A DNA stretch of 64,000 nt from Balneolaceae bacterium (GTDB taxonomy: Bacteria > Bacteroidota > Rhodothermia > Balneolales > Balneolaceae): NCBI GenBank assembly GCA_034521495.1, contig JAXHMK010000021.1, forward strand, positions 115,455 to 179,454. The letters are read 5' to 3'. Position 1 is the stretch's first letter. Every line of letters begins with the position of its first letter. The notes under the pieces are model-generated. The model searched no databases, was not told the origin of the DNA, and worked only from the letters and a program-made list of their open reading frames with translations. Shown piece after piece: positions 14,212 to 17,789 of this stretch. Made by a program: the position numbers and the translations under genes.

Positions 14212-14630
14212 AGCCTCGGAGGAGGCCATGAACAATATCAAGCGCATTAACGCGGACAGGCCTCGCCATCCCCTTGCCTCCCTTTCATTTATTAGTTAAT
14301 CTTTCGTTTTAAAACGAATTCGACACTCGGCGCCTGCCGGTTATGCGCAATGTCGATATGGCTTGAACACGGCATGCTAAAATATTAGAGAACTTAAGAA
14401 GCCGTGCTCTTCAATATAAGACTTTTAAGTAATTTTAAACTTTAGCGAGTAGACATTTCATTACGATCAAAAACTATTCTGTATCAAGTCTAGTCCATTT
14501 CTTAGAATTATAGACGCTTTTAGCTTTCCTGAAAGTTGATGCTTTAAAGTTTTTTGTGACTTTTTAGCTATTTCTCCGACTACAATACCACAACGACATT
14601 CTAAACTTTAATCACATATACCAACTTATT

Positions 14631-14873
14631 ATGAGTACTGACATCAAAATATTACACTCGTCTTGCTGCGCAAGCGGCTCACCTATTAAAGAACGAATCA
14701 AAAAAATTGCTGCTGAAAATAGTATAGAAATATCGATTGAAGAATTATCAGACATACAAGAAACAGCTAAATACGGTACTACAACCTTTCCCTCGCTGGT
14801 AGCAGGAGGAGAGGTTTACGACTATAGAAAGCTGTCGACTGATAAAGAAATATTGTCAATTTTGAATCAATAA
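14631..14873 (+). CDS. Small thioredoxin-fold protein (MTH895/Thioredoxin_3-like), cassette 3
   Basis: IKILHSSCCA...YG..TFPSLV pattern; vicinal Cys pair; directly upstream of the permease. Confidence 0.65.
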   Translation: MSTDIKILHSSCCASGSPIKERIKKIAAENSIEISIEELSDIQETAKYGTTTFPSLVAGGEVYDYRKLSTDKEILSILNQ

Positions 14874-15863
14874 TTGAGCACGTCAACAATGGAACAATTG
14901 ACTAATCTCTTTTCGAGTTTTGCAGATTATATTGTCTATAATTTGCTCGAGTTGGAAAAAGCAGGGCTGTTTAGTACAGCCCTGCAATACTTTATCACTA
15001 CATTTATTTTGATATCTGTGCTGGTAATTTTGGTTACATACATTATGGGTATTGTAACCAGCTATTTGCCAATGGATAAAATCAGGAAATATCTTGAAAA
15101 GTATAAAACAACGGGGTTGGGAAATATTATGGCCTCCGCATTAGGTGCTATTACTCCTTTCTGCTCCTGTTCTTCTATTCCATTATTCGTGGGCATGATG
15201 CAAGCAAAAATACCGCTGGGTATAGCTCTCTCATTTTTAATTACTTCTCCTTTGGTTAATGAAATAGCAATTGCATTATTTTGGGTGACTTATGGCTGGA
15301 AAATTACGGTCATCTATATTATTTCAGGAATTTTATTGGGCATATTTGGCGGTATTATATTAGAAAAGCTGGGTATGGCTAAATATGTAGCCGATTGGTT
15401 GCAGGATTTAGATAAAAGTAACACCCGGGTTAAAGAAGATGAGCGATCATTTCTTCAACGGATACCTGAAATAAATGCAGAAGCCTTACAGACAACAAAA
15501 AATTTAATGCCCTATATTTTTGTTGGAATCGCTATCGGAGCGTTTATTCATGGCTATGTTCCGCAATCCTTTTTTGAAGAATATATTTCAGAAAGTAATC
15601 CTTTAGCAGTTCCCATTGCGGTTGTTCTTGCTATTCCGCTGTATATTGATGCGGTCGGGATTCTGCCGATTATAGAATCCCTGATTGGCAAAGGAGTTCC
15701 CCTTGGTACTGCAATTGCTTTTATGATGGCTTCCATAGGCCTGTCACTTCCAGAAGCTCTTTTATTAAAAAAAGTGATGAAGAAAAAATTAATTATTTCA
15801 TTTTTTACCACCATCGGAATAGGAATGATCTTGTCAGGTTATTTATTTAACCTTGTAATGTGA
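14874..15863 (+). CDS. DUF318 permease, ArsP-like, cassette 3
   Basis: TPFCSCSSIPL, FLITSPLVNE, GLSLPE motifs; multiple TM segments. Confidence 0.85.
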   Translation: MSTSTMEQLTNLFSSFADYIVYNLLELEKAGLFSTALQYFITTFILISVLVILVTYIMGIVTSYLPMDKIRKYLEKYKTTGLGNIMASALGAITPFCSCSSIPLFVGMMQAKIPLGIALSFLITSPLVNEIAIALFWVTYGWKITVIYIISGILLGIFGGIILEKLGMAKYVADWLQDLDKSNTRVKEDERSFLQRIPEINAEALQTTKNLMPYIFVGIAIGAFIHGYVPQSFFEEYISESNPLAVPIAVVLAIPLYIDAVGILPIIESLIGKGVPLGTAIAFMMASIGLSLPEALLLKKVMKKKLIISFFTTIGIGMILSGYLFNLVM

Positions 15864-15876
15864 GTAAAAAAAGTTT

Positions 15877-16926
15877 ATGAAGATTTATGATACCATCATA
15901 ATAGGTGGTGGGCAAGCGGGTTTATCTGTTGCTTATTTTTTACGAAGGAGTGATTTAGAATATCTTATTTTGGATGATCACAAAGAAGCCGGAGGTTCCT
16001 GGTTGGAAACCTGGGACAGTTTAAAATTATTTTCACCATCTGAATATAGCTCCTTACCGGGTTGGCAGATGCCAAAAAGTGAAAATGAATACCCAACCAA
16101 AAATGAGTTTATTGACTATCTGAAGGCATATCAAGAACGTTACGATTTTCCTGTTCAAAGAAATACCTATGTCAGTCGGGTAGAAAAAGAAAATGGACTT
16201 TTTAAAATTGAAACCAGTGAGGGCGATCTTTGTACCAAAACACTGGTAAGTGCCACGGGAACGGCAAAAAATCCATTTATACCCGACTATCCAAATCGCA
16301 ATGATTTTAAAGGTATGCAAATACATTCAGTGACCTATAGAAATCCAAATGATTTCAAAGGTAAAAAAGTACTTGTTGTAGGAGGGGGCAACTCCGGAGC
16401 CCAAATATTAGCAGAAGTCTCTAAAGTAGCCAAGACTAAATGGGTAACGAAAGAACCACCCGAATTTCTTCCGGAAGAAATAGATGGACGTTACTTGTTT
16501 AAGCAAGCCAATGCCAGATACCTTAAGAATGATACGCAAACCTATAAGCAGGAAGTTTCATTGAGTAATATAGTGCAGGTTGAAAGCGTAAAGGACGGTT
16601 TAAAAAGAGATATTTATGACGCTGTAAGACCATTCGATTCTTTTTACGAAAATGGGGTTGTATGGCAAAACGGAGAAAAGGAAGGCTTAGATGCGGTAAT
16701 TTGGTGTACCGGTTTTAGACCAAATATTCATCATTTGCAACCCATAAATATTATGGAAAGCAACCACATTAAAACCGAAAACACACGCTCTCTAAAAGAA
16801 CCAAACCTTTGGTTAGTAGGCTATGGAAATTGGACAGGTTTTGCCTCTGCAACTATCTACGGCGTAGGGAAAACGGCCAGAGCAACCGTTAAAGAAATAA
16901 AAGAGGAATTTGAAAATGTTTCCTAA
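15877..16926 (+). CDS. ArsO-like NAD(P)/FAD-dependent flavin monooxygenase, cassette 3
   Basis: GGGQAG and GGGNSG Rossmann motifs, QIHS (FMO-like), WCTGF, GYGNWTGFASAT. Confidence 0.8.
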   Translation: MKIYDTIIIGGGQAGLSVAYFLRRSDLEYLILDDHKEAGGSWLETWDSLKLFSPSEYSSLPGWQMPKSENEYPTKNEFIDYLKAYQERYDFPVQRNTYVSRVEKENGLFKIETSEGDLCTKTLVSATGTAKNPFIPDYPNRNDFKGMQIHSVTYRNPNDFKGKKVLVVGGGNSGAQILAEVSKVAKTKWVTKEPPEFLPEEIDGRYLFKQANARYLKNDTQTYKQEVSLSNIVQVESVKDGLKRDIYDAVRPFDSFYENGVVWQNGEKEGLDAVIWCTGFRPNIHHLQPINIMESNHIKTENTRSLKEPNLWLVGYGNWTGFASATIYGVGKTARATVKEIKEEFENVS

Positions 16927-17061
16927 CGACGAAAATTCCGTTGCCAACAGGTTGTAGATTATGGAAAAAGAATTTATAAACTATTTAGTTTACGTCGCAG
17001 TTGGTATGTTTCCTTCCGCCGGCGTTTTTAAGTTGATATTTGAACTAAGTAATTTTTAGTC

Positions 17062-17661
17062 ATGGATGATCACTCATTGGATATCAGTAGCACGGCTCAG
17101 GAATTTTATTCTTACTTGAATAATTATATATCGAAAAAAGTAGGCGATCCCCATATTGCTAAAGATTTGACACAGGAAGTCATGTATCGACTGGCTAAAG
17201 CAGATGATGAGGATCGAAAAATCCAGAACGTAAAGGCTTGGCTTTTCCAAACAACCCGTCATGTAGTGGCCGACTACTATCGCGATAAAAATAAAAACCC
17301 TGTTAATGACATTCGTAGCAATTTTTCGACAAATTCAACCACATTAGAGGCACCTCCACTATCTGAAGTTGATTTTCTTATACCAATGATTAAGTTACTG
17401 CCAGATAAATATAGCCGTCCATTACTGATGAGTGATATTAAAGAGCTTCCTCAAAAAGAAATTGCAGAGAAGTTAAACATTGGGCTCTCGGCTACTAAAA
17501 TGCGCATCAAGAGAGCACGAGAAAAACTACATGAACTATTTACTATTTGCTGTGATATAGAGTTCAGTTCAAATGGAGATTTTGTTAGCTGTACTGTCAA
17601 AGATCATTGCGAACCATTGCAGAAGTTTCGAGAAGAATTGTGTCAGGAAAATAGATGCTAA
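17062..17661 (+). CDS. ECF sigma factor, SigZ-like, with Cys-rich C-terminus, cassette 3
   Basis: AKDLTQEV, KAWLFQTTRH..ADYYR, region 4 QKEIAEKLNIGLSATKMRIKRAR; tail CCDIEF...C...HC...LC...C. Confidence 0.8.
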   Translation: MDDHSLDISSTAQEFYSYLNNYISKKVGDPHIAKDLTQEVMYRLAKADDEDRKIQNVKAWLFQTTRHVVADYYRDKNKNPVNDIRSNFSTNSTTLEAPPLSEVDFLIPMIKLLPDKYSRPLLMSDIKELPQKEIAEKLNIGLSATKMRIKRAREKLHELFTICCDIEFSSNGDFVSCTVKDHCEPLQKFREELCQENRC

Positions 17662-17697
17662 GTAAAATTCTTGTTATCGATCCTATCATGTAGTGCC

Positions 17698-17789
17698 ATA
17701 TAACCATGCAAATCAAGCGGACACCTTTGCGTTTAGGTTACCTACATTCAAGCGCTTAGCAGCGCCGCTTATTTGCTAAGCCGTTAACC
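17698..17789 (+). other. attC-like site 3
   Basis: ATATAAC-catgca-AATcAAGCGG ... CCGCTTATT-tgctaagcc-GTTAACC. Confidence 0.85.

Follow-up and report, generated by a model that had tools for sequence, protein, structure and literature searches.

The window (the whole 64-kb stretch of DNA analysed here) carries on its forward strand an integron cassette of 3428 bp (14356-17783), which comprises four co-oriented genes, a leader with a predicted promoter and its own attC site. We think it somewhat probable, though no more than that, that the cassette is a complete self-regulating operon, in which a one-component sigma factor of the ECF238/SigZ type would sense a thiophilic metalloid through its cysteines and switch on its own cassette. 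As such, the cassette looks like a portable, self-regulating resistance unit. Its features are as follows.

14234-14355, forward strand: attC site of the preceding cassette, long type, which forms the left recombination point
14365-14409, forward strand: inverted repeat in the cassette leader, GAACACGGC...GCCGTGCTC (inverted-repeat pair I25)
14555-14582, forward strand: predicted ECF-type promoter, with -35 TGTGAC(TTT) at 14555-14560, a 16-nt spacer and -10 CGACTA at 14577-14582
14631-14873, forward strand: thioredoxin-fold protein of 80 aa with vicinal C12-C13 (Thioredoxin_3, E 1.5e-9)
14889-15863, forward strand: ArsP_1/DUF318 permease, 324 aa from ATG 14889 (PF03773, E 1.4e-64, full length)
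15877-16926, forward strand: ArsO-family NAD(P)H flavin monooxygenase, 349 aa (NF040505, 486.8 bits against a cut-off of 425)
16927-17061, forward strand: 135-nt spacer separating arsO from the sigma gene, part of the block in common with the second copy (L169)
17062-17661, forward strand: SigZ-like ECF sigma factor (Sigma70_r2 and r4_2 in Pfam, SigZ models in NCBIfam)
17699-17789, forward strand: attC site of the cassette itself, with R'' TATAAC at 17699-17704, L'' at 17708-17720, L' at 17765-17776 and R' GTTAACC at 17783-17789

The initial annotation had read the cassette as a CC thioredoxin-like protein, a DUF318 permease with a CSC motif, a flavin monooxygenase and a SigZ-like sigma factor with a cysteine-rich tail, and the forward-strand open reading frames and their Pfam and NCBIfam matches agree with that reading. 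Apart from the corrections given below, its interpretation was likewise supported in every part that lent itself to computation. It had also reported neither arsR nor an anti-sigma gene, and no ArsR-type (HTH_5/HTH_20) or anti-sigma open reading frame was found in the cassette by its ORF list and Pfam. Its view that the sigma factor stands in place of ArsR holds for the cassette but not for the larger clusters of the relatives L001, L086 and L100, where ArsR coexists with the sigma factor.

The thioredoxin-fold protein possesses C12-C13 without a CxxC motif, and this CC is invariant in 10 orthologues. It shares with the metallochaperone ArsD the thioredoxin fold and a vicinal cysteine pair at positions 12-13, and the two CC pairs are superposed in a profile alignment (hhalign E 6e-4, probability 28%), while weak Pfam matches to ArsD were obtained for 4 of the 10 orthologues (best E 0.005). 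However, the window protein itself gave no Pfam match to ArsD, and of the Cys12-Cys13-Cys18 triad that is expected together with such a match, the third cysteine is missing (position 18 is Pro). It is also shorter than ArsD (80 against about 120 aa) and is paired with a permease instead of ArsA, and its score against TIGR00412 ('MTH895/ArsE'), 37 bits, lies under the cut-off of 62. The protein is a candidate for a metalloid chaperone, or for a partner that serves the permease in redox reactions; either function is inferred.

The permease probably starts at ATG 14889 (MEQLTNL...), judging from its homologues, and not at TTG 14874, the start of the mechanical ORF. Its motif TPFCSCSS sits in a membrane segment, with FCSCSS invariant in 6 orthologues, so at the family level (PF03773) it qualifies as an ArsP-type permease with a conserved CxC. 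The next gene exceeds the equivalog cut-off of the ArsO family, and its orthologues come after the same module in L086, L091, L092 and L169. The statement that flavoproteins of ars operons oxidise methylarsenite is documented for ArsH and ArsV, but ArsO is called putative or undeciphered in the literature found, and its own substrate is not established there.

Compared with known ars operons, the cassette resembles those with ArsP (Campylobacter jejuni type) and arsO (Streptomyces pHZ227 type), and a thioredoxin-fold partner, such as the cassette also has, has long been noted in them ('redox-active disulfide protein 2', PMC2963123). In contrast to them, no ArsC, ArsB/Acr3 or ArsA was found in the cassette, CC replaces CxxC, and the substrates are only inferred; an arsenite pump with ArsC, as expected of an ars operon, is lacking in the cassette, although both lie beside the sigma gene in L001, L086 and L100. 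Moreover, known ars operons are controlled by ArsR, or by MarR_ars in Achromobacter, whereas the regulator in the cassette is a sigma factor and not a repressor.

The sigma factor finds its best NCBIfam matches in the SigZ models (TIGR02959, 128.4 against a cut-off of 168.65; PRK09637, 135.1 against 212), which reach into its tail, to residue 180-182, but both scores are below the cut-offs and the equivalog criterion is not met. ECF238, which merges ECF24 and ECF44, contains SigZ of Bacillus subtilis as well as CorE and CorE2 of Myxococcus xanthus, and members such as CorE2 are activated by metals via a cysteine-rich tail (PMC7826278, PMC8999054). In agreement with this group, the window protein consists of sigma-2 and sigma-4 only (Pfam) with a short cysteine-rich C-terminal extension, and it has no cognate anti-sigma factor, with no conserved extra gene accompanying the sigma gene in the neighbourhoods examined. 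The tail has 37 aa and six cysteines (C163, C164, C177, H182-C183, C194 and C199), of which the CC-x12-C-x5-C core is kept in 58 of 62 relatives. The third cysteine pair lies at either terminus, as an N-terminal ECC in 22 sequences and as extra C-terminal cysteines in 31, with both in 2 and neither in 3; this complementarity may, however, simply track phylogeny, which makes its independence as evidence doubtful. The CxC motif in the linker is essential in CorE-like proteins (PMC8999054). No cysteine occurs between residue 1 and C163 here, and most relatives likewise have no cysteines besides those described; because CxC is absent from the linker, the protein is, by its sequence, of the SigZ/ECF24 type and not of the CorE/ECF44 type that the initial annotation had invoked for metal sensing. 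It belongs to its own small subfamily (14 clusters at E <= 1e-30 among 1.84 billion representatives), whose regulon of ars-type genes is not described for ECF238 in the literature found. Neither a paper that connects ECF sigma factors with ars genes nor a description of a cassette-borne sigma factor was found in the literature.

The initial annotation had named linkage unique to this locus as a ground for refutation, and a survey of about 27 distinct loci, whose sigma homologues are at least 42% identical, showed the contrary. An ArsP_1 permease adjoins the sigma gene in 24 loci (21 distinct sequences of about 27), mostly together with the CC protein, and the permease orthologues next to the sigma genes are 60-76% identical; ArsO recurs in three distinct loci besides the window cassette (L086, L091 and L092). 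Balneolaceae have the genes in the order trx-arsP-sigma, Flavobacteriaceae-like loci in the order sigma-trx-arsP. The arsenic flavour was strengthened by the surroundings of relatives: in two Bacteroidales-type loci (L001 and L100) the sigma gene is embedded in an Acr3-ArsD-ArsA cluster, with the order Acr3-DsbD_2-Thioredoxin_3-ArsD-ArsA-sigma-[motif]-ArsD-ArsA, in which the second ArsD paralogue, past the motif, keeps only the CC (GGCCST), while in L086 ArsR-DUF6428-ArsC-like-Acr3 lies directly upstream and ArsO downstream. Nevertheless, the regulon is not exclusively arsenic-like, because several relatives carry MerT-like, HMA-like, Flavodoxin_2 or CMD genes in place of ArsO.

The bracketed motif in this order is the predicted promoter, which ends 49 nt upstream of the first ATG of the cassette. 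It had been offered only as a speculation, TGTGAC-N16-CGAC at 14555-14580, which is present as the sole exact match in the 64-kb window and proved to be conserved with fixed spacing beside the sigma genes of Balneolaceae, Flavobacteriaceae and Bacteroidales-type loci. The consensus across loci is GTGWCTT-N13/14-nGWCTHC, and the strict pattern occurs 39 times in 1.66 Mb of loci, where shuffles yield about 1.5 matches, and 33 of the 39 adjoin these sigma genes on the strand of the sigma gene. In L081, L082, L085 and L089 the same motif, equally spaced, precedes the homologous operon, and more than 20 other loci have it in the spacer between sigma gene and target. Beside these genes it always stands on the strand of the sigma gene, directly ahead of the linked genes, and it is kept where the sequence around it has diverged. 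It ranks as a strong phylogenetic footprint. Where the sigma gene comes first, the motif follows it, so that autoregulation does not apply to all loci.

According to the proposed mechanism, the cysteine cluster C163, C164, C177, C183 and C194/C199 would bind a thiophilic metalloid directly, with As(III), Sb(III) or a trivalent organoarsenical as the likeliest ligands, and binding would shift the tail relative to sigma-2/sigma-4, so that the holoenzyme could use the promoter TGTGACTTT-N13-CGACTA at 14555-14582, which would drive all four genes. The CC protein may then hand the toxicant to the pump or keep the cysteines of the pump reduced, the ArsP_1 permease would export it via the CSC motif, and the ArsO monooxygenase would oxidise trivalent species. 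The sigma gene is the last of the operon, which would give positive feedback. The use of the promoter by the sigma factor, the sensory role of the cysteines, the identity of the inducer and the substrates of the three effectors are inferred, and so are metalloid activation and the protection conferred by the cassette, for which there are no expression or binding data; no RNA run with the cassette sequence was found, and only DNA metagenome runs contain it.

In the manner of CorE and CorE2, the same architecture could instead have a soft metal cation (such as Hg(II), Cd(II), Zn(II), Cu or Ag) as its inducer and substrate, with the arsenic labels being no more than family names. The inducer could indeed be another soft metal, given the MerT-like genes behind the module in L087, L091-L093 and L095 and ahead of the permease in L096 and L098, and the HMA-like gene of L095. 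Furthermore, CorE2, which belongs to the same ECF group, is switched on by Cd/Zn via its tail (PMC7826278), and ArsP_1/DUF318 also covers SaoE-type exporters and Cu/Zn exporters such as SO_0444, to which, as to SaoE, the window permease shows only partial, sub-threshold similarity. However, the MerT matches are mostly under the threshold of Pfam, no MerA, MerR or P-type ATPase was found beside any relative examined, and arsenic is favoured by the score of the window ArsO, by the Acr3/ArsD/ArsA and ArsR/ArsC/Acr3 clusters in which relatives are embedded, and by an arsD-arsA pair that comes straight after the motif. We regard a soft-metal cation as possible but unlikely, and the preference for As/Sb over Hg/Cd or thiol stress is itself only inferred.

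The cysteines might also bind Zn in a structural role or act as a thiol-disulfide switch, in a response to oxidative, disulfide or electrophile stress, with the permease, the CC protein and the flavoenzymes handling reactive sulfur or electrophilic organics. The AlphaFold model of the sigma factor (mean pLDDT 73) places a beta-hairpin (164-179) and a helix (184-196) past sigma-4, and the four cysteines around the hairpin resemble a small Zn-binding knuckle, although the tail is modelled at moderate confidence only (pLDDT 59-71). Extra copies of the motif precede genes of redox enzymes, namely Flavodoxin_2/FMN_red in L081 and L101 and a CMD/AhpD-like gene in L082. The nearest solved structures to the window ArsO (4usr, E 6.5e-116; 4usq; 4a9w/4c5o) are small bacterial flavin monooxygenases without a stated arsenic link. 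Such enzymes catalyse sulfoxidation and Baeyer-Villiger reactions. A redox role leaves unexplained the repeated embedding in canonical ars clusters and the ArsD-ArsA pair past the motif, and vicinal CC pairs are common to the CC protein, the permease and the sigma factor, in the pattern of the As(III)-binding ArsD and MarR_ars, the latter of which senses As(III)/Sb(III) through Cys36, Cys37 and Cys157 (bioRxiv 10.1101/2021.08.12.456183). We consider this explanation rather improbable and retain metalloid sensing as the preferred one.

Turning to the boundaries of the cassette, the initial annotation had enclosed it by a matched core pair at 14355 and 17704. The pair is real, but 14355 is the R' G of the upstream attC and 17704 the end of R'' of the cassette's own attC, whose crossover after G17783 puts the true end about 80 bp further. 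In this attC, recognised by direct reading and an arm-complementarity scan, L'' and L' are 12-13 nt long with one extrahelical C in L'', and the centroid fold pairs the two arms. The left attC is a 92-97% repeat of that at 20025-20151, and its bottom strand forms a bulged hairpin (z -2.1); fold z-scores of the sister sites at 14234-14355, 18430-18516, 19656-19770 and 20025-20151 range from -1.9 to -2.7. Six co-oriented sites, with the R' G at 10554, 14355, 17783, 18510, 19764 and 20147, each follow right after a stop codon and combine a (C)GTTA core with R''/L''...L'/R' symmetry and with bulges of a single base on one arm, and a further attC site with a bulged-hairpin bottom strand trails each downstream cassette. 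The cassette accordingly has the 3' attC with imperfect R''-L''...L'-R' inverted repeats and the ends at the G|TT crossover of R' cores expected of an integron cassette, except that the left core is degenerate (GTCG|ATAT, in which G is 14355 and GATAT replaces GTTAT). The attC calls rest on reading, arm complementarity and folding, not on a curated attC model.

The claim that the unit is mobile as a cassette was borne out by a second Gracilimonas genome (L169), in which positions 7294-10725 match the cassette at 99.1% identity over 3433 bp within an unrelated neighbourhood, with a peptidase S9 gene on one side and, on the other, two unrelated ORFs and then argH, so that the unit is found in different contexts. 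Identity stops at CCG|TTA on the right and starts 1-2 nt past G14355 on the left, where the cores are GTCG|ATAT in the window and GGGTTG|G in L169. The cassette moves as a unit, because this near-identical copy lies elsewhere with both junctions on attC R' cores.

It is very improbable that the block is not an integron cassette but another kind of repeat, moved by homologous recombination between repeats or by IS-mediated transfer. An IntI integrase with attI, as expected of an integron, was not found: ORFs and Pfam matches in the flanks of the array, and the large ORFs left of it, revealed no integrase in the 64-kb window, and the gene list of L169 has no intI within 10 kb. With no integrase in the window, the array looks like an attC cluster lacking an integrase. 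In addition, the left R' core departs from the consensus, the simple arm-complementarity scan is at noise level genome-wide, no attC was detectable around the module in the relatives L082 and L085, and an IS110-family element adjoins the cassette region. Against this stand the six co-oriented post-stop sites, the block in common with L169 that begins at the upstream core and ends exactly at ...CCG|TTA, the opening of the next unit in L169 with TTATATGGCC, which resembles the start of the window cassette, and the neighbouring units of the array, whose toxin-antitoxin pairs, OLD-family nuclease and small ORF are the kind of content that cassettes typically carry.

That the sigma gene is an unrelated neighbour, joined by fusion of two cassettes or by chance and without regulatory tie to the three upstream genes, is effectively refuted: the gap before it is the largest in the operon and shows weak AAC...GTT symmetry at first sight, but its bottom strand folds unlike an attC (z -0.72), the linkage is kept across two gene orders and several families, and the promoter-like motif travels with the sigma gene. 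No terminator-like site was seen in this spacer either.

Like other cassettes with their own promoters (cmlA, toxin-antitoxin) and fused cassettes, the present one has a 3' attC and a G|TT crossover, is carried in an array and would be independent of the array promoter (PMC8876359). With four ORFs and a 275-nt leader bearing a promoter-like motif, it departs from the usual form of a single promoterless ORF, which is not disqualifying. It holds four genes in 3.4 kb, compared with about 0.4-1.3 kb for the three downstream units measured in the array, and it differs from other promoter-bearing cassettes in that its predicted promoter is of the ECF type and the presumed cognate sigma factor is encoded in the same cassette. 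The host of the cassette is a salt-loving Gracilimonas bacterium.

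The cassette originates from a Gracilimonas-like member of the Balneolaceae, whose sigma protein is 99% identical to a Gracilimonas MAG protein and whose window DNA is also present in salt-pan metagenomes. Four co-oriented ORFs on the forward strand span 14631-17661:

Thioredoxin_3 protein with a CC pair, 80 aa, first cassette gene
ArsP_1/DUF318 permease, full-length, carrying TPFCSCSS
flavin monooxygenase (ArsO), 349 aa, above the NCBI ArsO equivalog cut-off (486.8 vs 425)
ECF sigma factor, 199 aa, best matched by SigZ models, which are sub-threshold and cover the Cys-containing tail

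The initial annotation had named these four gene families and the lack of arsR and anti-sigma genes, and ORF and family searches agree with it, as neither an ArsR-like nor an anti-sigma ORF was found in the cassette. The permease is predicted to start at ATG 14889, probably not at the mechanical TTG 14874, because its orthologues open with ME(T/Q)L... and have a length of 324 aa. In the CC thioredoxin-fold protein, C12-C13 stands in place of CxxC and is invariant among orthologues, both CC pairs superpose when its profile is aligned with that of ArsD, and some orthologues give weak ArsD matches; because of these features the protein, which is not ArsD by Pfam, may function as a chaperone instead of a reductase. 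The closest solved structures to ArsO are small bacterial flavin monooxygenases. In the literature, the role of ArsO in arsenic handling is termed putative or undeciphered, and oxidation of MAs(III) and Sb(III), an idea related to ArsO, has been documented for ArsV.

The sigma factor possesses a cysteine motif, C163, C164, C177, and C183 (CC-x12-C-x5-C), which is shared by 58 of 62 relatives. A third pair occurs at either end of the protein, as an N-terminal ECC (n = 22, mostly Bacteroidota) or as one or two cysteines after C183 (n = 31), while two sequences carry both forms and three carry neither; the window sigma belongs to the C-terminal set with C194 and C199. The two arrangements almost exclude each other, which looks as though the protein required a third pair from one end or the other; this is suggestive only, and the N-terminal versus C-terminal pattern follows phylogeny. 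In an AlphaFold model (pLDDT 73, pTM 0.42), the last sigma-4 helix ends with the CC, and a beta-hairpin (164-179) and then a helix (184-196) come after it. Group ECF238, which merges ECF24 and ECF44 and holds SigZ and CorE2, is described as metal-activated via a Cys-rich tail (PMC7826278). The cysteine pattern can also be compared with the As(III)/Sb(III) site of the repressor MarR_ars, which consists of a vicinal pair and a distant cysteine.

The linkage of this sigma factor to ars-type genes was surveyed in individual homologue neighbourhoods, a metagenome scan, and a tblastn census. Among relatives with at least 42% identity, an ArsP_1 permease adjoins the sigma gene almost always (24 loci, 21 distinct sequences), and the CC thioredoxin-fold protein is also present at most of these loci. 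Uniqueness of the arsP linkage to this locus would have refuted the initial annotation, and this outcome can be set aside. The gene order is trx-arsP-(arsO)-sigma in Balneolaceae and sigma-trx-arsP in Flavobacteriaceae-like loci; ArsO follows the module in L086, L091, L092, and L169 (the last from a second Gracilimonas assembly), and in Aequorivita (L086) the module abuts ArsR-DUF6428-ArsC-like-Acr3. Most telling are the two loci that have flanking sequence but no permease, L001 (Proteiniphilum) and L100, where the sigma gene lies within Acr3-DsbD_2-Thioredoxin_3-ArsD-ArsA-sigma-ArsD-ArsA. The close subfamily is small: in 1.84 billion representatives, 14 clusters match at E <= 1e-30, whereas relaxing to E <= 1e-10 gives about 1000. 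A scan of genome contigs with a broad sigma alignment, whose patterns had been placed in region 2 and therefore mainly picked up generic ECF sigma factors, was informative only for L001-L007. At actinomycete-type loci, ArsO-like monooxygenase genes adjoin more distantly related Cys-tailed ECF genes (with tails such as ACCQVELD...HCPC), so the sigma-ArsO association may extend past the FCB group; in L005 and L006 an ArsR-like gene is close by as well:

L005, 7001-8905, distant Cys-tailed ECF sigma and ArsO-like monooxygenase
L006, 2881-9777, the same pair
L113, 861-2539, the same pair

TGTGAC-N16-CGAC, which had been offered as a speculative promoter, has a single exact match in the window, and the same motif with the same spacing precedes the first gene in L081, L082, L085, and L089 despite diverged surrounding sequence. 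Where the sigma gene comes first, the motif occupies the spacer between it and the next gene, which in L001 and L100 is arsD. A strict form, GTGWCTT-N13-16-NGWCTHC, gave 39 matches in 1.66 Mb of fetched DNA versus 0-3 in shuffled sequence, and 33 of the 39 belong to subfamily loci, where every one shares the strand of the sigma gene and stands directly upstream of linked genes; the motif recurs at fixed spacing beside the sigma genes. Its layout resembles that of ECF promoters, with a -35 element that ends in AC/TC, a -10 element of CGAC/CGTC/AGAC, and 16-17 nt between them, and we consider it likely that the sigma factor and this promoter belong together. In the cassette the motif precedes the sigma gene, which implies positive feedback there; this does not apply to sigma-first loci. 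Second copies of the motif are present at L081 5787-5814 and L082 2911-2938; such copies precede a Flavodoxin_2/FMN_red gene (L081, L090) or a thioredoxin-like remnant and CMD/AhpD-like genes (L082, L083), and these are candidates for additional regulon members. A sigma-70 promoter scan performed no better than chance, no terminator was found between arsO and the sigma gene, and no RNA-seq runs with the cassette sequence were found.

A similar GTGACTT-N-GTCT(C/T)C was also observed on the opposite strand upstream of the sigma gene in L115, L130, L131, L140, L159, and L164, which are unrelated ECF loci (28-39% identity) without a Cys tail; another ECF group may, because of these six loci, have a similar promoter specificity.

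Between 9.5 and 20.2 kb, attC-like sites in a common orientation form an array; each directly follows a stop codon, and the G of the R' core is at 10554, 14355, 17783, 18510, 19764, and 20147. Their bottom strands form hairpins with single-base bulges on one arm. No integron integrase was found in the 64-kb window, so the array looks like an attC cluster without integrase. Decisive for mobility is L169, which carries the same four genes with 99.1% identity over 3433 bp (window 14357-17786) in a different neighbourhood, where a peptidase S9 gene lies upstream and, on the downstream side, two unrelated ORFs come before argH. The identity ends on the right at ...CCG|TTA, the R' core of the cassette's own attC, and on the left one or two bases past the G of the upstream R' core; the following unit in L169 opens with TTATATGGCC, closely resembling the start of the window cassette. 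These junctions therefore define the cassette as 14356-17783 (3428 bp), compared with about 0.4-1.3 kb for the three downstream units of the array. That it is mobile as a unit is very probable, and the unusually large mobile cassette proposed in the initial annotation is borne out by this block. The permease of L169 shows a 1-nt deletion opposite window 15767, near its 3' end, and is called as 295 aa, which is either a frameshift or an assembly error.

The 135-nt gap that separates arsO from the sigma gene hides no attC: a possible degenerate site at 16920-16995 was ruled out, since the segment does not fold into a hairpin (z -0.72) and is part of the block common to the window and L169. The L169 junction identifies GCGCATTAAC/GTTATGCGC in the long attC sites, which were tried as R''/R', as L''/L', and places the true R' further downstream, at GTCGTTAT. 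The arm-complementarity scan for attC recovered the real sites, but shuffled sequence gives about as many matches, so that it is not statistical evidence; a MAFFT alignment of five attC sites was too poor for a covariance model, and Rfam gave no match in 12400-17900, even at E <= 1. No attC was detected around the module in L082, L085, and L089, while L081 and L090 have one upstream of the Flavodoxin_2 gene.

In the best-supported model, a one-component Cys-tailed ECF sigma would respond to a thiophilic metalloid and switch on a small export and oxidation operon, all on one mobile cassette. An As/Sb species as the signal is close to an even call. The permease family takes in the methylarsenite exporter ArsP, and it also takes in Cu/Zn exporters and SaoE-type exporters; a soft metal (Hg, Cd, Zn, Cu) is a rival signal. 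A thiol or redox signal is a rival as well. Accessory genes near relatives encode MerT-like, HMA-like, and CMD proteins and Flavodoxin_2/FMN_red enzymes. Chance adjacency of the sigma and its neighbours is effectively excluded. Returning to the metalloid-responsive model, we propose only tentatively that the subfamily would be a new As/Sb sensor class, binding directly via vicinal cysteines without ArsR or anti-sigma, and packed in Gracilimonas with promoter and effectors in one integron cassette. If true, this would be a portable "regulon in a cassette", whose expression is independent of the array promoter and of the recipient host's regulators.

No report of an ECF sigma factor tied to ars genes, or of a cassette-borne sigma factor in integrons, was found in the literature searched, the gene-context supplements of the ECF reclassification being outside the former search. 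For arsenic biology, where control is known from the repressors ArsR and MarR_ars, the data point to sigma-factor control of ars-type genes, a prediction open to direct testing, as the promoter and four to six cysteines are defined and the operon is small. For the SigZ/ECF24 branch of ECF238, which is poorly understood, the analysis supplies a promoter consensus together with candidates for the signal and the regulon. In the integron field, a cassette with its own transcription factor and promoter offers a route to expressed, regulated cargo anywhere, including arrays without integrase or sites far from the array promoter.

The other units of the array carry typical cassette cargo, including a defence-type gene, and are accompanied by an insertion element:

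9891-10166, Phd/YefM antitoxin of a toxin-antitoxin pair, first of two further cassettes, ending at the attC with R' 10554
10582-12528, OLD-family nuclease, 648 aa, AAA_21 and TOPRIM, the defence-type gene, second of the two further cassettes
12555-14230, IS110-family element, transposase ORFs 13067-13360 and 13354-14136, reverse strand
17865-18433, DUF433 and DUF5615/PIN-like pair, small downstream cassette
18557-19636, beta-lactamase-fold protein with signal-peptide-like N-terminus, small downstream cassette
19799-20014, 71-aa membrane peptide, small downstream cassette

An ORF overlapping and downstream of the Phd/YefM gene resembles the YoeB/Txe toxin, by eye only. The IS110 element appears to be inserted between L'' (ATGGCCTCC, 12546-12554) and L' (GGAGGCCAT, 14221-14229) of the attC of the OLD-nuclease cassette; its transposase is split by a frameshift (260 aa and 97 aa), downstream of the transposase gene there is a GC-rich non-coding stretch of about 500 nt (12560-13066), and 14148-14211 is a perfect 32-nt tandem duplication. 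The last attC of the array (20025-20151) repeats the site at 14234-14359 at 92-97%, and a convergent gene for an MsbA-like ABC transporter (20268-22064, reverse strand) closes the array. A 187-nt repeat with nested inverted repeats CTGAACTCGATTCAGA...TCTGGAGATCCTGAATC, resembling a small palindromic repeat element or MITE, is present in three copies (60-87% identical), one of which marks the left edge of the cassette array:

265-451, 187-nt repeat
9297-9483, 187-nt repeat
57924-58110, 187-nt repeat

Finally, a segment on the reverse strand (28191-28243) matches the Rfam family whalefall-1 RNA (RF01762), scoring 38.8 bits where the gathering score is 37 (E 1.3e-6).
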